64,000 bases of DNA from Candidatus Saccharimonadales bacterium (GTDB lineage Bacteria; Patescibacteriota; Saccharimonadia; Saccharimonadales; EFPC-124), in assembly GCA_035710125.1 (NCBI GenBank), contig DASTDY010000077.1, positions 5,401-69,400 on the forward strand, given 5' to 3'. Made by a program: the position numbers and the translations under genes. This document shows, in pieces, positions 1,991 through 28,811 of this stretch (positions are counted from its first letter, which is position 1; the number at the start of each line of letters is the position of its first letter). The notes beneath the pieces are model-generated. The model was not told the DNA's origin. It searched no databases and saw nothing but the letters and a program-made list of their open reading frames with translations.

Positions 1991-3151
1991 ATGACCGAGC
2001 AGCCTCATCAACCAAGATCGTTTCGTAATTTACTTCGCACACTATGGCCAAAAGCCGCGCCTGTTGTCATTAGCCTAGCCGCCGGATTTGTTGGTGCGTG
2101 GCTTTTGCTTGCCACTGGTATCGTTAAGTCCGAGGCCGCACAGACGCTTACCGATAGCCGGCAAACCTTGGTGCTGCAGCAGGGTGAAATCGTTTCTGAT
2201 GTATTTAAAAAGGTTAGCCCGAGTACTGTAGCGATTACCACCGAGTCTATAAGCACCTCACAGCGGTATCTTGCGCCAAGGGTAAGCGAAGGGGCGGGTA
2301 GCGGCATAATCGTTTCTAAAGACGGCTACGTGCTCACAAACAAGCATGTCGTGCCGAACGGTACGAGCAAGGTGTCTGTTGTTACGTCTGACGGAACACA
2401 GTACGACAACGTGCGGCTAGTCGGCCGCGACCCGAGTAACGACATTGCGTTTTTAAAGATCGACGGCGCTACGGACCTGCCGGCTGCCACAATTGGCGAT
2501 TCCAGCCAAGTAGAGCCTGGCCAGCAAGTTGTTGCCATCGGTAACGCGCTTGGGTTGTTCCGTAATAGTGTGACAAGCGGGATTATTTCGGGGCTGGGCA
2601 GGCCTATCCAGGCGGCAGATGAATCTACTGGAATGGCAGAACAGCTAGAAGACATGCTGCAGACCGATGCTGCCATTAACCCCGGCAACTCTGGTGGCCC
2701 GCTAGTTAATTTAAAGGGCGAGGTAATAGGCATAAACACGGCCGTGTCTCAAGATGGGCAGGGTATTAGTTTTGCGATTCCGATCAATACTGCCCGAGGG
2801 CTCATAAAATCGGTGCTCAACAAGGGTAAGATCGAGAAGGCATTCTTGGGTGTTGCCAACCTCACCATTAATGCAGACGTCGCAAAACAGCTTAATCTAA
2901 GCGTAAAAGCTGGTGCTTTGGTGCGGGCGAGTAGCCGGCAGCCAGCCATAATTGCGGGCAGTCCAGCCGCAAAGGCGGGGATTAAAGCCGGCGATATTAT
3001 AACTAAAGTTAACGGACAGGCAATAACACCCGAATCTGGCCTTCCTTCTAAATTAGCCCAATTTAGCCCTGGCGATACGGTAGAACTTACACTGGTACGT
3101 GATGGCCAAGAACAAAAGATTTCTGTAACCCTAGAAAGCTACCCGCAGTAG
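1991..3151 (+). CDS. htrA: HtrA/DegP-family serine protease with C-terminal PDZ domain
   Basis: N-terminal TM anchor. Trypsin-like blocks VLTNKHV, DIAFLKI and GNSGGPL. PDZ-like tail GSPAAKAGIKAGDIITKVNG. Confidence 0.85.
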   Translation: MTEQPHQPRSFRNLLRTLWPKAAPVVISLAAGFVGAWLLLATGIVKSEAAQTLTDSRQTLVLQQGEIVSDVFKKVSPSTVAITTESISTSQRYLAPRVSEGAGSGIIVSKDGYVLTNKHVVPNGTSKVSVVTSDGTQYDNVRLVGRDPSNDIAFLKIDGATDLPAATIGDSSQVEPGQQVVAIGNALGLFRNSVTSGIISGLGRPIQAADESTGMAEQLEDMLQTDAAINPGNSGGPLVNLKGEVIGINTAVSQDGQGISFAIPINTARGLIKSVLNKGKIEKAFLGVANLTINADVAKQLNLSVKAGALVRASSRQPAIIAGSPAAKAGIKAGDIITKVNGQAITPESGLPSKLAQFSPGDTVELTLVRDGQEQKISVTLESYPQ

Positions 3152-3735
3152 TGCGTCGCGTTATCCCCGATGATGCGATCCTAGTGCCAGACCATGCAGA
3201 ATGCGTTTTTAAAGGTGTTATATTCGATGTCTACCAGTGGCCTCAGCAGTTGTTCGATGGCTCGCACGCCACATTCGAGATGCTCAAGCGCCCTGACACA
3301 GTAAAAACGATCGCCATTAAAGATAATGCCATAATTATGCTCGACGAGCAGCAACCCCACGGCGGGAGTGGCTTTGAGCTACCCGGTGGGCGCCACGACG
3401 TACCTAGCGAAGACGAGCTCGCATGCGCCAAGCGCGAACTACTAGAAGAAACCGGAATGTCTTTTAAAAATTGGCGGCTACTATCTGTGTACCAGCCAGC
3501 TCCAAAGGTAGAAGCATTCGTTTATATCTTTTTAGCTACCGAATTTTTGGAACAAACCACGCCGCACACCGACGCCGGAGAAAAGATTACCTTGCACCCC
3601 GTGAGTTTTGACACATTTTTAAGCCTTGCCCGCGACCCACGGCATGGTACGTACTTGCCGCTGCATGTGCTCGACCAAGCTGGCTCGCTACAGGGTTTAT
3701 TGCAGCTACCGAGCTATTCCAATAAGAACGAATAA
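3151..3735 (+). CDS. NUDIX hydrolase
   Basis: Nudix box GGRHDVPSEDELACAKRELLEETG. GTG start overlaps the htrA stop. Confidence 0.8.
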   Translation: MRRVIPDDAILVPDHAECVFKGVIFDVYQWPQQLFDGSHATFEMLKRPDTVKTIAIKDNAIIMLDEQQPHGGSGFELPGGRHDVPSEDELACAKRELLEETGMSFKNWRLLSVYQPAPKVEAFVYIFLATEFLEQTTPHTDAGEKITLHPVSFDTFLSLARDPRHGTYLPLHVLDQAGSLQGLLQLPSYSNKNE

Positions 3736-6499: not shown

Positions 6500-6543
6500 G
6501 TTGGTGAGCGCTGCGGATACTGCGGTTACGCGCGCTCACCAAC
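6500..6543 (-). terminator. 12-bp GC-rich hairpin downstream of the 6558..7109 cassette
   Basis: GTTGGTGAGCGC (6500-6511) pairs with GCGCTCACCAAC (6532-6543). Confidence 0.6.
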
Positions 6544-6557
6544 CTTCAGAGATCCCT

Positions 6558-7109
6558 TTACGCGACTGGCTGTACGACGCTGGCGTGCCACGTGGTGATG
6601 TGGTCGGTAACCTTGGTTGGCTCGATCGGTTCATCGGAGACCAGGTGCAGAATGCTTGCGGCGGTCCTCCATTGCAAGGATCGTTGCAATTCTTGGCATA
6701 GGGTGTCGTTGGACAACGCTCCAGATGGCACCAGCAGCACGAAGAAGTTGTTCGGGATGTAGTCGATCAACGCCTTGAGCTCGTAGTCGTCGTCTACGAA
6801 CATGTCGGCGTGGATCGACAACACGTAGGGCTCCCCAGGAGCGGCTTGGTTCGCTAGCCAGATGAGGCATTCAACCAGCCGCGCACCATCGCCCAACTGC
6901 GGCCGGTTGCACAGCGCCGGCGGCCGGTACATGTCAAATGGCAGGCCATTGTCGGCGACATCGCCGAAGTAGAACAAGTCGCCAGTGTCGCTGACGAGCT
7001 CCATGTGCGCCAGCGCTTTTACCACGTCGCCGAAGCGGTGCGCCAGGTGGCCATCGGCTTCTTTTACGACGGATTGCTGCACGAGGAACATAGCTTTAAC
7101 CTGAGTCAT
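6558..7109 (-). CDS. GC-rich cassette gene A, hypothetical protein
   Basis: 183-aa ORF with ordinary protein-like composition. Upstream TTGCCA-N18-CATAAT lies on the minus strand at 7163-7192. GC-rich body with an overlapping alternative-frame ORF. Confidence 0.6.
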   Translation of the reverse strand: MTQVKAMFLVQQSVVKEADGHLAHRFGDVVKALAHMELVSDTGDLFYFGDVADNGLPFDMYRPPALCNRPQLGDGARLVECLIWLANQAAPGEPYVLSIHADMFVDDDYELKALIDYIPNNFFVLLVPSGALSNDTLCQELQRSLQWRTAASILHLVSDEPIEPTKVTDHITTWHASVVQPVA

Positions 7110-13029: not shown

Positions 13030-13725
13030 ATGGAAACATCAACCCTTAAGGTGGTGCCTGAACACATAGGTTTTATTGTTGACGGCAACCGCCGATGGGC
13101 AAAAAAACACGGCCTTCCAGGCTATGAGGGCCATTTGGCCGGCCATGCAGCGTTAAAAGAGGTGCTTCGGACTGCTGTGCAGCGGGGCATTAAATACGTG
13201 TCGTTTTATGTGTTTTCTAGCGAAAACTGGAAACGTTCCCAAGACGAAGTCTCGCATATCATGAACATGGCCGTGCGACTTATAAAAGACGACGTAAAAG
13301 AGCTACTTAAAGAGAATACCCGTTTGGTTGTAATCGGAAAGCGGCAAGGTTTACCCGATAAAGTTGCCCAAGCTTTCGACGATGCCGAGGCTAAAACTGC
13401 GCACTGCTCCCGCGCAACCGCATTATTTTGCTTTAACTACGGCGGGCAGCAAGAAATTGCCGATGCGGCTAGCCAATGTGCACAAGATGGCGTGCCGATT
13501 ACACCCGAATCTATCCGCGAGCGGTTATATTACCCACAGGCGCCCGACATAGACTTGGTTGTCCGTACTAGTGGCGAACAACGCTTGAGCAACTTTATGC
13601 TCTGGCGCACCTCGTACAGCGAATTTTTGTTTTTAGACACGCTTTGGCCCGATTTACGTCCGGCCGATGTTGATGTAATGTTAGAAGAATATAATAAGCG
13701 CCAGCGTCGTTTCGGAGGAAGTTAG
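13030..13725 (+). CDS. uppS: undecaprenyl-diphosphate synthase
   Basis: HIGFIVDGNRRWA, FSSENWKRS and RTSGEQRLSNFMLWR blocks. Confidence 0.95.
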   Translation: METSTLKVVPEHIGFIVDGNRRWAKKHGLPGYEGHLAGHAALKEVLRTAVQRGIKYVSFYVFSSENWKRSQDEVSHIMNMAVRLIKDDVKELLKENTRLVVIGKRQGLPDKVAQAFDDAEAKTAHCSRATALFCFNYGGQQEIADAASQCAQDGVPITPESIRERLYYPQAPDIDLVVRTSGEQRLSNFMLWRTSYSEFLFLDTLWPDLRPADVDVMLEEYNKRQRRFGGS

Positions 13726-23209: not shown

Positions 23210-25531
23210 ATGGCGACACTAAAAGAACTCCGCGACGAACGGCTCCGCAAGTTAAATGAGCTTACACAATTGGGCGTTAACCCGTATCCGGCTAAAGCCG
23301 AGCGCACGCATACATTACGGGCAGTTAACGAGCAGTTTGCCAAGCTTGAAGGCGCACAGGCCAGTGTAGTTGGCCGTATCACCAACATCCGCAAATTTGG
23401 CAAAATAGCTTTTGTGGTAATTCGCGACGCTACTGGTAGTTTGCAATTATTTTTGGGTGCCGATAAAGTTGCGGACTTAAACGCCGAAGACTCGCAAATT
23501 GGGTTCGACCAACTGCCGCTACTAGATTCAGGCGATTTTATCCAGGCCGACGGCCAGATAATCAAAACCAAAACTGGCGAAATCAGCATTGGAGTAGAAC
23601 GTCTGCGCCTGCTCACTAAATCGCTCCGCCCGCTGCCTGGCGCGCACGATGGTTTTACCAACAAAGAAGAACGCCTGCGCCGCCGCTACGTAGACACCAA
23701 CGCCAACCCTGACGTATACGAACGCTTTTTACGCCGCAGCGCGTTTTGGCAAGCCACACGCGACTTTTTGTTGAGCGCTGAATTTGTAGAAATCAACACG
23801 CCAGTGTTAGAACTTACCACCGGTGGGGCAGACGCCAACCCATTTGTTACCCACATGGACGCCCTAAACCAAGATTTTTACCTGCGCATTAGCCACGAAC
23901 TGCCATTAAAGCGTTTGTTAGTTGGCGGCTACGAAAAAGTCTTTGATATTGGCCCCCGGTTCCGTAACGAAAATTACTCAGACGAACACCTACCCGAGCA
24001 CATCGCCATGGAATGGTACTGGGCCTACGCCGACTGGAACATGGGCATGCGCTTAACTGAACAGTTGGTGCGTAGTATTGCCGACAAAACCTGGGGCACC
24101 CGCCAGTTCACCCTGGCAAATGGCATGCAGGTAGACCTTGGCGCAGACGGCGAAGACTGGCCGCGCATTAGCTTTGTAAATATTATGCAGGAGCATTTTG
24201 GCCTAAACGTGTTTACCTGCACGCTCGACGAAGTAAAAGCCCAGCTTAAAAAATACGGTGTCGAAGTAGAGAAGTCAGAGAATAGGCCGCGCGGCATTGA
24301 TAAATTATGGAAGAAGATTCGCGGTACCCTGCCTGGCCCCGCATTTTTAGTTGATATTCCAACCTTTTTGCAGCCACTCGCCAAAACCCAAGCCAGCAAC
24401 CCCGAGCTAACTGAACAATTTAACTTGCTCCTGGGCGGCAGCGAATTATGTAAGGCGTACTCTGAGCTCAACGACCCCATAGACCAATTGAACAGATTTG
24501 TTGAACAACAAGCCATGCGCGACGCCGGCGACGATGAAGCTATGATGCTCGACATCGACTACGTTGAAGCCCTGGAATACGCCATGCCCCCAGCCTGCGG
24601 ATTTGGCTTTAGCGAACGCCTATTTTGGGTGCTAGAAGGCGTCACCGCCCGCGAAGGCGTGATATTCCCAGCCCTTCGCCGCGAAATAGACGAAACCACC
24701 AAAACGGTATATCCCGATTTAAAATTTGAGGCGCCTGCACCAAAACCGGCGCCCAAAGCATCAGCCAAAGACCTGCCAGAATCCGCAGCCGAGCAGGGGA
24801 CGGTCAAGCTATATTTAGATAATTACCAACTAACCGAATGCAACGCCACGTTGGTAAGCACAGAAGATCTTGGCGAAGGCAGCTACCGTTTTGTACTAGA
24901 CCAAACCTGCCTGTATCCGGGCGGTGGCGGCCAAGATTTCGACCTCGGCAAATTAGAATGGGACGGCGGCGAGCTTGTTTTAACCTCTGTCAGCAAAGAT
25001 AAAGACGGCATTGTGTACCACGACGGCACCCTGCAAGGCGAGCTGCCAAAACCAGGCGACCGCATAGAATGCGAAGTAGACGAACCCCGCCGTTTATTAA
25101 ACTCGCGCCTGCACTGTGCCGGTCATTTAATAGACTACGCAATCGCAAAACTCGGCAAAGACTGGAAAGCCGGCAAGGGCGCGCACTACCCAGGCCGCAG
25201 CTACGTAGAATACGACGGCGAATATGTGGCCGAAGAATCCGAAACCCTGGCGCGCTCAATCGAAACCGTGCTGCAAAACCTAGTGCAAGAAGGCGGCGCA
25301 ATCACACCATCGCGCGTACCCGGCGCCGACGCCAACAAATACAGCGCCTACCTGCCGCAAACCATTTTAGATTCTTACAAAAACGTGCACGTCACCAAAT
25401 ACCCGCACGACTTTGCAGTGTGCTGCGGCGGGACACATCTTAAAGACGTATCCGAGCTCGGTGAAGTAAAAATCACAAAGATTAAGAAAAAAGATGGCCA
25501 TATCCGCGTAAGTTACGAATTGGTGAGTTAG
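23210..25531 (+). CDS. lysS: class II lysyl-tRNA synthetase fused to a C-terminal AlaX-like (tRNA_SAD) editing-type domain
   Basis: LysRS core (OB fold, GPRFRNENYSDEHLPEH, class II motifs) to about aa 500. A Pro/Ala/Lys linker follows, then a domain with HxxxH (LHCAGHLI) and CxxxH (CCGGTH) motifs. Confidence 0.85.
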   Translation: MATLKELRDERLRKLNELTQLGVNPYPAKAERTHTLRAVNEQFAKLEGAQASVVGRITNIRKFGKIAFVVIRDATGSLQLFLGADKVADLNAEDSQIGFDQLPLLDSGDFIQADGQIIKTKTGEISIGVERLRLLTKSLRPLPGAHDGFTNKEERLRRRYVDTNANPDVYERFLRRSAFWQATRDFLLSAEFVEINTPVLELTTGGADANPFVTHMDALNQDFYLRISHELPLKRLLVGGYEKVFDIGPRFRNENYSDEHLPEHIAMEWYWAYADWNMGMRLTEQLVRSIADKTWGTRQFTLANGMQVDLGADGEDWPRISFVNIMQEHFGLNVFTCTLDEVKAQLKKYGVEVEKSENRPRGIDKLWKKIRGTLPGPAFLVDIPTFLQPLAKTQASNPELTEQFNLLLGGSELCKAYSELNDPIDQLNRFVEQQAMRDAGDDEAMMLDIDYVEALEYAMPPACGFGFSERLFWVLEGVTAREGVIFPALRREIDETTKTVYPDLKFEAPAPKPAPKASAKDLPESAAEQGTVKLYLDNYQLTECNATLVSTEDLGEGSYRFVLDQTCLYPGGGGQDFDLGKLEWDGGELVLTSVSKDKDGIVYHDGTLQGELPKPGDRIECEVDEPRRLLNSRLHCAGHLIDYAIAKLGKDWKAGKGAHYPGRSYVEYDGEYVAEESETLARSIETVLQNLVQEGGAITPSRVPGADANKYSAYLPQTILDSYKNVHVTKYPHDFAVCCGGTHLKDVSELGEVKITKIKKKDGHIRVSYELVS

Positions 25532-26242
25532 GTGAACTCCAACTATTTGATTAGCTTCAAGGAGGAGCTGGAACAGATTGATAAACTCGTAGCAACGCCA
25601 AATCTTATACGGGAGTTTGCCATAAGTCAACTCAGGGGAGTGACACGAAAGGCGACTCTCTCATATCAAGACAATTTAAAGATAAACAACGCTATCCAAG
25701 CCTTGGCGAATATTAAGGATGCCTCTATTAGCAGTAACTATCGTGTGATTTATAATCAGGTGTGTGTCTTGGCAGCATCGGCGCTTGAAGCTATTTTAAA
25801 GCGATATTTTATCGATGCCGCTAATGATTACACCCGACTCAATCTAAATAATAAAAAGCTAGATGAGATCAAGGTGACTCTGAGAGTGCTAATAGACAAA
25901 GACCTTAAAGAAGGAACACTTGGAGAAAATATAATTTTATCTGATAACAGTTTAAAATTTCAAGATTTACAGTCGATTAAGCGTGCCTTTTTAGATTATT
26001 TTTCCGGCATGAGCCTGAATTTAGATACGGATCTAGAGAAGAAATTAATTTTTTACCTTGAAGTTAGACACGTAATTGTACATAAATCCTCGTATGTGGA
26101 TAAAAAGTTTTTGCATGCAACGAGTGGTCGTGAAGCAAATTTACGGAGTTGGCAACTGGGCGATAAAGTACAGCTTGATGAAGAAGATTGGAAGAGCATA
26201 AAAGAGTCGTATGCTCTATTATTGGCTGAGATAATTAAGTAA
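25532..26242 (+). CDS. AT-rich gene, HEPN-like protein (Rx4H motif)
   Basis: Visibly AT-rich 236-aa ORF starting at a GTG right after the lysS stop. All-helical-looking, with LEVRHVIVHKSSY (R-x4-H). Confidence 0.45.
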   Translation: MNSNYLISFKEELEQIDKLVATPNLIREFAISQLRGVTRKATLSYQDNLKINNAIQALANIKDASISSNYRVIYNQVCVLAASALEAILKRYFIDAANDYTRLNLNNKKLDEIKVTLRVLIDKDLKEGTLGENIILSDNSLKFQDLQSIKRAFLDYFSGMSLNLDTDLEKKLIFYLEVRHVIVHKSSYVDKKFLHATSGREANLRSWQLGDKVQLDEEDWKSIKESYALLLAEIIK

Positions 26243-26245
26243 TTA

Positions 26246-26274
26246 TTGACAAAACCCCAAATTCGTGCTACACT
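26246..26274 (+). promoter_or_regulatory. consensus-like promoter driving a non-coding transcript
   Basis: TTGACA (26246-26251), 17-nt spacer, TACACT (26269-26274). No ORF follows. Confidence 0.55.
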
Positions 26275-26279
26275 GCAAG

Positions 26280-26851
26280 TACCAATCGTTTCTCTTACAT
26301 AAAAATTCGGTAAACAGTTGTCTGCATGTAGCTTAATAAGTCGCTATGCAGGGCTAAAGCCGCGTTCGCGCCTGGGAACAGGTGTGGGTATCGGGATAAT
26401 AATCAAAACCAGGTGCTTTCGTGCCAATGAAAAGGCACGCGGGTGTGATGCTATCTACGTCCAATGTCACTGGCAAAAGACTGCAGAAGATAGCGTATGC
26501 GGATAGGGCGTATGGTGTTTGCTTGACCTTCTAAGCGAGCTTTGGGGAAACCCGGAGCAGCCTATGGTTGGAATGGCGCAGTGTGCGGACCGCCGCCAAA
26601 CAGGCAACTGTTTGCCGAATTACATCTAAAAAGCTTCTTGCCAACCGGCAAGCGACCGTAGGAACCCAAAGATAGGCACAAGAAGGCCTGGGCCACGGAT
26701 CGTACCAGAAAGCAACCAGATGTTTTTACGAGAAATTATTGCGCGCCAGTGCGTAGGGCGCAGCCTAAAAGTAGGGCAGTTATACTACTTTGTACATTTG
26801 CGCACAGAAACGATTTTAAAACCCCGCTAGGCGAAGGCTTGGCGGGGTTTT
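26280..26851 (+). ncRNA. about 570-nt structured RNA, possibly a divergent RNase P RNA
   Basis: Promoter and intrinsic terminator (AAAACCCCGC...GCGGGGTTTT, 26818-26851) bracket an ORF-free region. A 10-bp 5'-3' closing helix pairs AATCGTTTCT (26284-26293) with AGAAACGATT (26806-26815). Several hairpins have UUCG or GNRA loops. Blocks resemble RNase P conserved regions: UAAGUCGCUAUGCAGGGC, GGGGAAACCCGGAGCAGCCUAUGG, CAGAUG, ACAGAAAC. Confidence 0.45.
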
Positions 26852-26960
26852 AATAAAATGGTGCAGGCACTATTTTACGGGATTATTATTTTGACTTTTT
26901 TACTCTTATATTTTATCATATATTGAGGTTTACCCATCTCCAATCGACTGAGGAGTTTCG

Positions 26961-27860
26961 ATGCAGCAGTTCGACCTTTCCTGGTACGAGGGCGTCACCG
27001 ACAAGAAGTTTGCCGACGTCACGCCGGGTTCGGTTCTGACGTACCAGATCTGGAGTCCTACCAGCGAGCAGGACGGCGCCATGCGCGTGCTCACCGAACC
27101 GTTCGCGCGGACCACGTGGCACGGCAACGTCGACCACAGCACCCACAACCGCGGGGAGTGGCTGGAGTTCCAGGTCGTCTACGGCGAGCTGGTGTTCAAC
27201 CACAGCGCCAAGCTGTTCGGCGAGCCGGACTGGCGGGTGTACCCCGAGGGTCTGGGTGAGCCGCCTGCAGCTACACCGGCTGTGGTGGTCTGGCGCACCG
27301 AGCGCGAGCCCCACCTCATTCCGGTGGCTTCCATCTGGTGGGGCGAGCCGGGGCAGGACGCCGAGGAGTTCCGTCAGCAGGTGTTGGCGGAACTGCCTCA
27401 GCCGTTGGCTGTGGAGGAGCGTTTCGCCCTCCGCGAGGGCACGCCGGTGACGGTGCTGGTGGTTGCCGAGCAGAGCGAGGAGCTCACCGAGCTCCTCGGG
27501 CAGCTCAACCACCCGCTGGTCACGGTCAAGGCGGCGCACTCGGCCGAGGAGACCCTGGCCAAGCTGAACGGTACCGATGTGATCATCGTGGCCGATGAAC
27601 TGCCGATCCGTGCCGGCGAGCAGCCCGTGCGGACGTACTGCGCCGGGTTCATCAGGGATGGCTTGGTGCAGCTCGACATCCCGCTCATCGGCTGGCCCGT
27701 GAACGTGCTTCGGCGCCGCAACAGGGAAGACAACCCCGACCTGGTGACGATGCACCTGCAGGCCGAGTGCGGCCAGGTGCTGGGTGCCATGCCGGAACGG
27801 GGGCGCGTGCCCCTGCACCACGTGCTGGACGCCCTCGGTGTCCACACCACCTACGTGTAA
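26961..27860 (+). CDS. GC-rich cassette gene F, with a receiver (CheY)-like central segment
   Basis: GAGGAG SD and ATG. TTGACT-N17-TATCAT upstream. VTVLVVAEQSEELTELLGQL..VTVKAAHSAEETLAKLNGTDVIIVADELP resembles a degenerate REC domain. A fully antisense 326-aa ORF was rejected. Confidence 0.55.
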   Translation: MQQFDLSWYEGVTDKKFADVTPGSVLTYQIWSPTSEQDGAMRVLTEPFARTTWHGNVDHSTHNRGEWLEFQVVYGELVFNHSAKLFGEPDWRVYPEGLGEPPAATPAVVVWRTEREPHLIPVASIWWGEPGQDAEEFRQQVLAELPQPLAVEERFALREGTPVTVLVVAEQSEELTELLGQLNHPLVTVKAAHSAEETLAKLNGTDVIIVADELPIRAGEQPVRTYCAGFIRDGLVQLDIPLIGWPVNVLRRRNREDNPDLVTMHLQAECGQVLGAMPERGRVPLHHVLDALGVHTTYV

Positions 27861-27977: not shown

Positions 27978-28358
27978 TTATTTAATTTCGGTCAGTTCAA
28001 TATCAAATACTAAGTCTGAATTTGCTGGAATATTCGGCGATGGCGAAGCGCTGCCGTATGCCTGCGCAGCAGGAATGATTAACCGACGGGTGCCGCCAAC
28101 TTTCATGCCGGGTACACCTTTTTGCCAGCCTTCGATCACGCCATTGAGCGGAAAGGTAATAGGCTGGCCAAAGTCGTGTGAGCTTTGAAAGATTGTGCCA
28201 TCTGCCACCAATGCGCCGGTATAGTGTGCGGTAATGGTAGCGCCTGCTGGCACGGGATCGCCCGAACCTTGTACGGTGTCGATAATTTGTAATTCGGTAA
28301 CTTGGGCTTGCGGCTCAAAATTTGTTAGTTTTGTGCCTTCTAATTTAGTTGTATCCAT
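27978..28358 (-). CDS. FKBP-type peptidyl-prolyl cis-trans isomerase
   Basis: ITAHYTGALVADGTIFQSSHDFGQPITFPLNGVIEGWQKGVPGMKVGGTRRLIIP..LVFDIELTEI. Start moved to the ATG at 28358. Confidence 0.9.
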   Translation of the reverse strand: MDTTKLEGTKLTNFEPQAQVTELQIIDTVQGSGDPVPAGATITAHYTGALVADGTIFQSSHDFGQPITFPLNGVIEGWQKGVPGMKVGGTRRLIIPAAQAYGSASPSPNIPANSDLVFDIELTEIK

Positions 28359-28394
28359 TCCACGATTGTACCAAATGGCTGCTACAATAGGGCA

Positions 28395-28811
28395 ATGTCT
28401 ACCATTTATTACACCGATGGCTCGTGTAGCCCTAACCCTGGCCCTGGCGGATTTGCCGTTATAAAAAATATGGAAGTGTGCGCGCTGGGGAGCGAGTCTG
28501 CCAGCACTAATATACGCATGGAAGGCCACGCCCTTATTGCCGCCATGAAAGATGCAAACGGCCAGCCCTGCACAATCCACACCGACAGCGAATTTTGGAT
28601 TAACGTTATCACCAAATGGGCGCCTGGCTGGCAAAAAAAGGGTTGGAAGAAGTCGAATGGCGAAATCAAAAACCTCGATTTAGTAAAAGAAGCTTACGCG
28701 CTCCACCAGCAAAGCAAGGCCACGCTTATTTGGGTGCGCGGCCACAATAATGACCCTGGCAACGAACTCGCCGACCAGTGGGCAAACAAAGCCCGCGAAA
28801 CAAAGGCGTAG
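28395..28811 (+). CDS. rnhA: ribonuclease HI
   Basis: IYYTDGSCSPNPGPGGFAV..TNIRMEGHALIAA..HTDSEF..WVRGHNNDPGNELADQWA. Confidence 0.9.
   Translation: MSTIYYTDGSCSPNPGPGGFAVIKNMEVCALGSESASTNIRMEGHALIAAMKDANGQPCTIHTDSEFWINVITKWAPGWQKKGWKKSNGEIKNLDLVKEAYALHQQSKATLIWVRGHNNDPGNELADQWANKARETKA

Follow-up and report, generated by a model that had tools for sequence, protein, structure and literature searches.

The region described here lies in a 64-kb window (the whole stretch of DNA that was analyzed) from the chromosome of a member of the Saccharimonadales, within the candidate phyla radiation. Downstream of the LysRS gene lysS and an orphan open reading frame (ORF), it harbors a predicted RNA gene of about 570 nt with its own promoter and terminator. 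An initial annotation of this stretch had proposed a near-consensus promoter (TTGACA-N17-TACACT) that fires into about 570 nt without a credible ORF and ends at a strong intrinsic terminator, and all three elements could be verified. The promoter follows four bases after the stop codon of the upstream ORF (25532–26242), matches the consensus at 10 of 12 positions in the promoter scan and carries, in addition, a TG extension of the −10 box. Between promoter and terminator, no + strand ORF exceeds 62 amino acids (aa), and the start of the transcript was placed, by inference, 7 nt past the −10 hexamer. The + strand RNA has a minimum free energy (MFE) of −222 kcal/mol (z = −7.3 versus dinucleotide shuffles), compared to z = −3.4 for the opposite (−) strand. 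The flanking ORFs carry the consecutive depositor locus tags VFO38_06455 and VFO38_06460, with no annotation in between. ARAGORN detected neither a tRNA nor a tmRNA in the whole window, and no Rfam family was found anywhere in it at gathering score.

Homologues were searched for by profile nhmmer (with --max) in the DNA around lysS in 80 species, in contigs retrieved via close LysRS relatives, and by one motif scan of metagenomes. Related genomes from metagenomes yielded eight additional complete copies and a truncated one (39–89 bits for L002, L013, L086, L092, L093, L094, L099, L101 and the truncated L095), which share a covarying fold and, including the window, range from 199 to 577 nt. All 10 copies are preceded by the same TTGACAAA...(A/T)TGCTAnnnT promoter arrangement (TTGACA, N17), and each of the nine full copies closes with a G+C hairpin and a U run, the terminator sequence being different every time. 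Judged from these signals, the RNA is predicted to be transcribed independently, from its own strong extended −10 promoter to its own terminator.

The loci of another 78 species contained no copy. Scanning 241 million metagenome records for an exact motif gave 10 matches, of which one (L086) is a true homologue and the other nine are coincidences within coding sequences. On viral contigs, a first motif had no match at all, and a second one had 14 matches that are limited to a 16-mer and reach at most 20 bits against the core profile, indicating that they are due to chance; blastn searches of phage and plasmid collections gave no match. The RNA sits between lysS and rnhA/Zincin_1, a conserved chromosomal position which points to vertical descent. 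The RNA family is real, but narrow and patchy, and confined to a subclade of the Saccharimonadales (Saccharibacteria).

To align the copies, each RNA was cut into modules, and the concatenated modules were checked to equal the genomic sequence. The modules were aligned by hand, and this alignment was passed through MAFFT with its gaps replaced by N to preserve the columns; MAFFT alone misaligns P3, Pc and Px. In the hand structural alignment of the nine full copies we count 77 pairs in 11 helices, including one pseudoknot, with 96.1% of the 537 pair cells canonical and 32 of the 77 pairs changed on both sides. In 500 column shuffles, none of the five measures was ever matched, and when the 3′ partners were slid by 1–3 columns as a control, 36–42% of the cells remained paired and no more than 10 pairs had changes on both sides. 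RNAalifold recovers P4, P5, P6, P9 and the pseudoknot helix from the unedited MAFFT alignment, and the copies show the common architecture each time when folded singly. The model was drawn from seven sequences before two further members, L099 and L101, came to light; both fit it with new compensatory changes, namely CCGCU/AGCGG and CUGC/GCAG in P3, GUU/AAC in Pc and an inserted U-A pair in P4.

Table 1. Features of the RNA gene, its homologues and the neighboring genes. Positions refer to the window unless a homologous locus is named.
Feature	Position	Strand	Sequence or length	Basis or remark
RNA gene, promoter to terminator	26246–26852	+	~570-nt structured RNA	Saccharimonadales (candidate phyla radiation) chromosome
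Sigma-70-type promoter	26246–26274	+	−35 TTGACA (26246–26251), 17-nt spacer, −10 TACACT (26269–26274)	promoter scan
Extended −10	26266–26274	+	TGCTACACT, with TG	promoter scan
Predicted transcript	26281–26852	+	~570 nt	promoter and terminator positions, MFE, no Rfam match
P1 closing helix	26283–26293 with 26806–26816	+	CAAUCGUUUCU / AGAAACGAUUU	97.8% of cells paired in 9 sequences; 5 pairs with both-side changes
P2	26305–26317 with 26608–26620	+	AUUCGGUAAACAG / CUGUUUGCCGAAU	13 pairs, 92% paired, 4 with both-side changes
Expansion domain at P2 tip	26318–26607	+	290 nt	long form; window and L094 only
Px	26622–26627 with 26718–26723	+	ACAUCU / AGAUGU	5/6 pairs with both-side changes
Pc	26633–26636 with 26710–26713	+	GCUU / AAGC	closes three-way junction
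P3 hairpin	26637–26652	+	CUUGCC-AACC-GGCAAG	100% paired, 6/8 pairs with both-side changes
P4-P5-P6 arm	26653–26702	+		RNAalifold; every single-sequence MFE fold
P4	26653–26658 with 26696–26702	+	CGACCG / CGGAUCG	nearly invariant, with bulge (bulged U)
P5	26665–26667 with 26690–26692	+	CCC / GGG	one pair switches between C-G and G-C
P6 hairpin	26674–26689	+	AGGC-ACAAGAAG-GCCU	two pairs switch, A-U/G-C and G-C/A-U
Junction strand	26703–26709	+	UACCAGA	near-invariant; identical in 7/9 copies
Conserved segment C7	26730–26742	+	GAGAAAUUAUUGC (also written GAGAAAUUAUUG)	unpaired in model; kept in five copies with long 3′ domain
P8 hairpin	26743–26761	+	GCGCC-AGUGCGUAG-GGCGC	100% paired, 3/5 pairs with both-side changes
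Pseudoknot, P8 loop with 3′ strand	26749–26754 with 26800–26805	+	GUGCGU / GCGCAC	6 pairs, 100% paired; 3 wobble-type changes, 1 both-side change
P9 hairpin	26769–26790	+	AAGUAG-GGCAGUUAUA-CUACUU	100% paired, 3/6 pairs with both-side changes
Intrinsic terminator	26818–26852	+	A-tract, 17-bp G+C-rich hairpin, U-tract (UUUU)	MFE fold, sequence
L094 copy	L094 3803–4412		577 nt	
L093 copy	L093 about 3060–3436		346 nt	
L092 copy	L092 about 3043–3403		330 nt	
L002 copy	L002 10507–10858		319 nt	
L101 copy	L101 about 13150–13435		about 250 nt	
L086 copy	L086 850–1117		237 nt	
L099 copy	L099 about 6504–6765		about 225 nt	
L013 copy	L013 8167–8396		199 nt	
L095 copy	L095		5′ end only	cut by contig end
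LysRS gene lysS	23210–25531			LysRS fused to C-terminal AlaX-like editing module (tRNA-synt_2c and tRNA_SAD)
Slot after lysS, window	25532–26242		236 aa	orphan ORF, RHVIVH motif (Rx4H, HEPN-like)
Slot after lysS, L095	L095 9310–10113			Ymh/HEPN protein
Slot after lysS, L002	L002 8635–9690			RelA/SpoT-like PADLOC PDC-S33 protein, E 8e-118
Slot after lysS, L091	L091 10087–10680			Mrr nuclease
Slot after lysS, L101	L101 9311–11050			AAA ATPase
Slot after lysS, L099	L099 3277–4308			RhuM
High-G+C ORF, window	26961–27860	+	299 aa	65% identical to L094 neighbor ORF
High-G+C ORF, L094	L094 4539–5432			beside other long-form RNA
High-G+C ORF, L086	L086 about 520–770	−		unidentified
High-G+C DUF397 ORF, L099	L099 6203–6430	−		

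The window copy carries every defining element of the family: promoter, terminator, P1, P2, Px, Pc, the Pc/P3/P4–P6 junction, the UACCAGA strand and the ACAA loop. The closing helix had already been noted in the initial annotation, and its core AATCGTTTCT (26284–26293) is indeed the perfect complement of AGAAACGATT (26806–26815). Among the homologues, P1 shows compensating U and A insertions in L002, CAAGUU/AACUUG in short forms, and CUCGUUUCCC/GGGAAUGAG in L013. The following P2 is conserved in sequence and includes a conserved U.G wobble. Px retains its pairing with unrelated sequences, e.g., UAUC/GAUA in L092, CUGCC/GGCAG in L086 and UGCCG/CGGCA in L099, and the outer pair of Pc occurs as G-C, U-A, A-U or G.U and its second pair as C-G, U-A or G-C. 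Pc, P3 and the P4–P6 arm together form a three-way junction with UACCAGA as its sole unpaired strand; the exceptions to this sequence are UAUCAGA in L002 and UACAUA in L101. The sequence of P3 changes in nearly every lineage with pairing always kept, and the P6 loop starts with ACAA in eight of the nine copies.

P8, P9 and the pseudoknot are restricted to the five copies with a 3′ domain, so that the four short forms lack the pseudoknot. Its 3′ strand GCGCAC directly adjoins the P1 3′ strand AGAAACGAUUU. The C7 segment, GAGAAAUUAUUG, could also pair with UUUCUC in the P1 5′ strand (26288–26295), in competition with the P1 3′ strand, and L002 has a matching extra U or A in C7 and in both P1 strands alike. 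This alternative pairing of C7 and P1 may represent a conformational switch.

Four other potential elements were considered and dropped. Support was too weak for an AU-rich helix that would join J12 to the segment following Px, and pairing of the 5′-terminal GUAC with an internal UGUAC is not kept in L002 or L093 and would cross P1. A mimic of the tRNA acceptor end via the ACCA in the junction strand is not maintained in L002, which has AUCA. The bases of a possible 11-nt GAAA-tetraloop receptor (UCUAAG...UAUGG) in the expansion domain belong to other helices of the predicted secondary structure.

Between its two strands, P2 carries a hypervariable insert, which measures 7 nt in L013, 29 in L099, 39 in L086, 40 in L002, 46 in L092, 47 in L101 and 67 in L093, but reaches 290 nt in the window and 294 in L094. 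The two long inserts are closely similar save one replaced sub-hairpin, and all eight substituted predicted pairs stay paired. They hold UUCG-, GGAA-, GAAA- and GCAA-capped hairpins. The local hairpins listed in the initial annotation are present as well: GCG-UUCG-CGC (26362–26371), CCUG-GGAA-CAGG (26371–26382) and CAAACAG-GCAA-CUGUUUG (26597–26614). The expansion is lineage-specific and optional.

The gene in the slot just after lysS varies from relative to relative and is often defense-like. At several loci, the first such ORF directly adjoins the lysS stop codon or overlaps it; this region looks like a hot spot for variable genes. In the window it is occupied by the 236-aa ORF, for which nothing was found in Pfam, NCBIfam or PADLOC, and no homologue but itself among 5.8 billion proteins. 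The LysRS of the window is 56–84% identical to those of 80 other species, mostly labeled Saccharibacteria or Saccharimonadales. Its editing module is a separate ORF in L094 and is replaced by a different C-terminal extension in L013, while many relatives have the ~505-aa enzyme alone.

ORFs of 63–67% G+C lie beside the RNA gene in genomes of about 52% G+C. The 299-aa ORF of the window has only six unnamed homologues in a large protein database. DUF397 is typical of actinomycetes, and Saccharibacteria live on Actinobacteria; the high-G+C ORFs may be host-derived. A promoter-like site (TTGACT-N17-TATCAT, 26891–26919) in the A+T-rich spacer upstream of the 299-aa ORF would fit a foreign gene under the control of a promoter of native type. 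Further downstream, a mechanical call of a 218-aa FKBP ORF (27978–28634, −) overlaps the RNase H gene (28395–28811, +); the L094 FKBP homologue has only 127 aa, indicating that the real FKBP start is probably further in.

Given this neighborhood, the RNA could be part of a mobile or defense island and serve as an antitoxin, guide or scaffold for the variable genes downstream of lysS. The varied defense-type genes in the slot between lysS and the RNA, the foreign-looking high-G+C ORFs directly adjoining the RNA in the window, L094, L086 and L099, and its patchy distribution among close relatives would all fit. Yet no protein family co-occurs with the RNA: L013, L092 and L093 have it with no defense-like neighbor, and L091 and L098 carry related genes right after lysS but no RNA. 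Moreover, neither an integrase nor repeats were found, viral contigs, phages and plasmids are free of copies, and the conserved lysS to rnhA/Zincin_1 position argues for vertical descent, so that we regard a role in such an island as unlikely.

A compact three-way junction with a near-invariant strand, to which the long forms add a pseudoknot, is typical of catalytic as well as ligand-binding cores, and the RNA might thus be a ribozyme, self-cleaving or otherwise catalytic, with the junction and the pseudoknot as its active site. This appears quite improbable, as no ribozyme family of Rfam was matched, the junction strand varies in two copies (UAUCAGA and UACAUA), and the short forms dispense with the pseudoknot domain.

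Could the terminator serve to control a downstream gene, with the RNA acting as a regulatory leader in cis, for instance as a riboswitch or an attenuator? The RNA does close in a terminator, and a gene on the same strand follows within 35–130 nt in the window, L094 and L093. Nevertheless, the following gene belongs to different families (299-aa orphan, RNase H, NTP_transf_9) and is on the opposite strand in L002, L013 and L092; since it varies in both identity and strand between loci, the RNA is not expected to be a leader. In addition, no anti-terminator alternative is conserved, and the downstream ORF of the window has a promoter-like site of its own (26891–26919). A leader function is therefore very improbable, and a T-box-like leader was dropped because there is no constant downstream gene.

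The initial annotation put forward a candidate divergent bacterial RNase P RNA, the catalytic subunit that trims tRNA 5′ leaders, and pointed to four sequence blocks resembling conserved regions of RNase P; these blocks would correspond to CR-I, P15, CR-IV and CR-V. RNase P RNAs of the candidate phyla radiation are indeed divergent, some being found only after the RF00010 threshold had been lowered to 5 bits (PMC8172020). Even then, each of the 35 genomes in that study, two of them Saccharimonadia, yielded its RNase P RNA with this model (PMC8172020). We scanned Rfam 15 (4227 models) at gathering score in the window and the nine homologous loci, and at E ≤ 10 in region 26100–27000, L002 and L013. 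At gathering score there was not a single match in these ten sources. At E ≤ 10 the three regions gave chance-level matches only, mainly to short sRNA, miRNA and CRISPR-repeat models and many of them over the terminator hairpin, and no RNase P model (RF00010, RF00011) was listed for any of the three, nor any ROOL, GOLLD, OLE, raiA, HEARO, 6S, SRP or intron model for 26100–27000, although a match of only 5–15 bits would not show in a listing by E-value.

The four strings do exist in the window, but comparison with the homologues removes their meaning as RNase P regions. Blocks 1 (26337–26354) and 2 (26544–26567) lie inside the ~290-nt expansion which is absent from seven of the nine copies, and blocks 3 and 4 are strands of ordinary helices: CAGAUG (block 3, 26717–26722) overlaps the Px 3′ strand, replaced by unrelated complementary sequences in other members, and ACAGAAAC (block 4, 26804–26811) extends from the pseudoknot strand into the P1 3′ strand. 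The copies of 199–252 nt have none of blocks 1, 2 and 4, and block 3 is not conserved in sequence. Likewise, no GGAAAGUC-type strand is conserved and a P4 pseudoknot of the GGAAAGUC/ACAGAA type is absent, the sole AAGUC string (26337–26354) being located in the expansion.

The closing helix and the long-range pseudoknot strand next to the P1 3′ strand are reminiscent of RNase P RNA (RF00010/RF00011), as are the stability of the RNA, its lineage-specific expansions at helix tips and its peripheral hairpins capped by GNRA or UUCG loops. In contrast to RNase P RNA, however, the new RNA has no covariance-model match and no CR-I to CR-V sequences in conserved positions. The 5′ strand of its pseudoknot is a hairpin loop about 50 nt upstream rather than the strand after P3, and the 199–252-nt copies do without any pseudoknot. 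Moreover, the conserved fold offers no counterpart of the specificity domain (P7–P12, CR-II/CR-III), and the shortest member has 199 nt.

Nor is the RNA universal, its distribution being narrow and patchy. Four close relatives lack it at the syntenic locus, as do the 78 other species at their loci, and near lysS, the region scanned, it is missing in most related genomes. With a single copy in 241 million metagenome records (by exact motif), it is far rarer than an essential RNA would be in a common soil order. Absence from the syntenic site in close relatives together with rarity in metagenomes is not expected of an essential RNA, and the consecutive depositor locus tags on both sides of the region also speak against RNase P. 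We therefore consider a divergent RNase P RNA to be extremely improbable. That the region instead encodes a small protein, with its conservation due to coding constraint, has a negligible probability in our view: short ORFs of 20–62 aa can be drawn in each copy, but frame, start codon and position vary among copies and no ORF is conserved in the relatives, the only ATG-initiated ORF of the window (36 aa, 26720–26830) is frame-shifted in L094, substitutions are paired across helices with no three-base period, and the length differences in the hairpin loops and the expansion are not multiples of three.

Parallels also exist with other large RNAs. OLE, ROOL, GOLLD, raiA and HEARO are hundreds of nucleotides long and fold into covarying structures with many helices and pseudoknots; they occur in restricted taxa and have functions that are unknown or were long unknown. 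The new RNA shares their size class, covariation, multi-helix pseudoknotted fold and restricted range, but matches none of their models, belongs to Saccharibacteria, is chromosomal and not phage-borne, and varies about three-fold in size via one optional domain and one hypervariable helix tip. Like 6S RNA and Ms1-type RNA-polymerase-binding RNAs, it looks like an abundant non-coding transcript that stands alone, flanked by a promoter and a terminator that are both strong, and its 5′ and 3′ ends are paired. In contrast to the long rod with a central bubble of the 6S type, it has a branched three-way-junction core with side hairpins, and RF00013 is not matched. In the literature on structured or non-coding RNAs of Saccharibacteria or Patescibacteria we found no paper describing this RNA, only the one on divergent RNase P.

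Overall, the observations of the initial annotation are largely right, while its interpretation as RNase P is wrong. Its fallback, a new large structured RNA, agrees with an RNA that is conserved, independently transcribed according to its predicted signals, non-coding, strongly covarying and without an Rfam match. We conclude with high confidence that the RNA represents a new and genuine family of structured RNAs rather than RNase P. The best explanation as a whole, which we hold to be probable though far from certain, is the gene for a member of such a family, previously undescribed and non-coding. As to its action, the RNA might be a stable scaffold which binds a protein or a small ligand in trans, a tentative assignment that we consider possible but doubtful.

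The fold is organized around a core of the closing helix P1, the sequence-conserved P2 and the nested Px and Pc, which open into the Pc/P3/P4–P6 three-way junction. Long forms add a 3′ domain of two hairpins, with the P8 loop pseudoknotted to the bases just 5′ of the P1 3′ strand. If the RNA is a binder, its site of binding would be made up of the invariant junction strand, the loop of P6 and the two helices conserved in sequence, P2 and P4. The variable tip of P2 and the 3′ domain with the pseudoknot would be dispensable, peripheral elements that stabilize or tune the fold. The sequence conservation of P2 and P4, including the U.G wobble and the bulged U, exceeds what pairing would need, which suggests specific recognition by a protein or ligand.

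Several points weigh against this explanation. At the loci compared, no protein gene is constantly adjacent to the RNA, and no copy was found within 7 kb of lysS in the close relatives L091, L096, L097 and L098, which share the same upstream synteny; the RNA would thus be dispensable or relocated there, which argues against a core housekeeping role. Both ends of the transcript are inferred from sequence signals alone. The sample consists of nine sequences from about eight lineages, with the window and L094 closely related, and P4 is imperfect in three copies. Because the alignment was hand-fitted to the proposed structure, with P3 aligned by pairing alone, the pair statistics are inflated. The small sample and the fitted alignment mean that the numbers overstate the statistical certainty, but the qualitative conclusion is robust.

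A practical lesson is that string-level likeness to RNase P regions can arise in lineage-specific expansions and vanishes upon comparison of homologues. The natural size series, from a minimal form of 199 nt to an expanded one of 577 nt, is handy for structural work and for locating the functional core.

Saccharibacteria and other bacteria of the candidate phyla radiation have tiny genomes. To our knowledge, apart from rRNA, tRNA and divergent RNase P, hardly any of their non-coding RNAs have been explored. A pseudoknotted RNA family of 200–575 nt with good support is unexpected in such a small genome, and its strong promoter, its invariant junction and the lack of a relative among the 4227 Rfam families indicate a function worth keeping in a streamlined genome. 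In a more speculative and rather unlikely scenario, it would be a new ornate RNA class of an ultrasmall epibiotic lineage, with a catalytic or ligand-sensing junction, and with the 290-nt expansion, its hairpins capped by GNRA loops, and the 3′ pseudoknot domain as optional domains that build a higher-order RNA or RNA–protein particle linked to symbiosis. If so, the particle might handle host-derived nucleic acids or genes, given that high-G+C, actinobacterial-looking genes recur beside the RNA.

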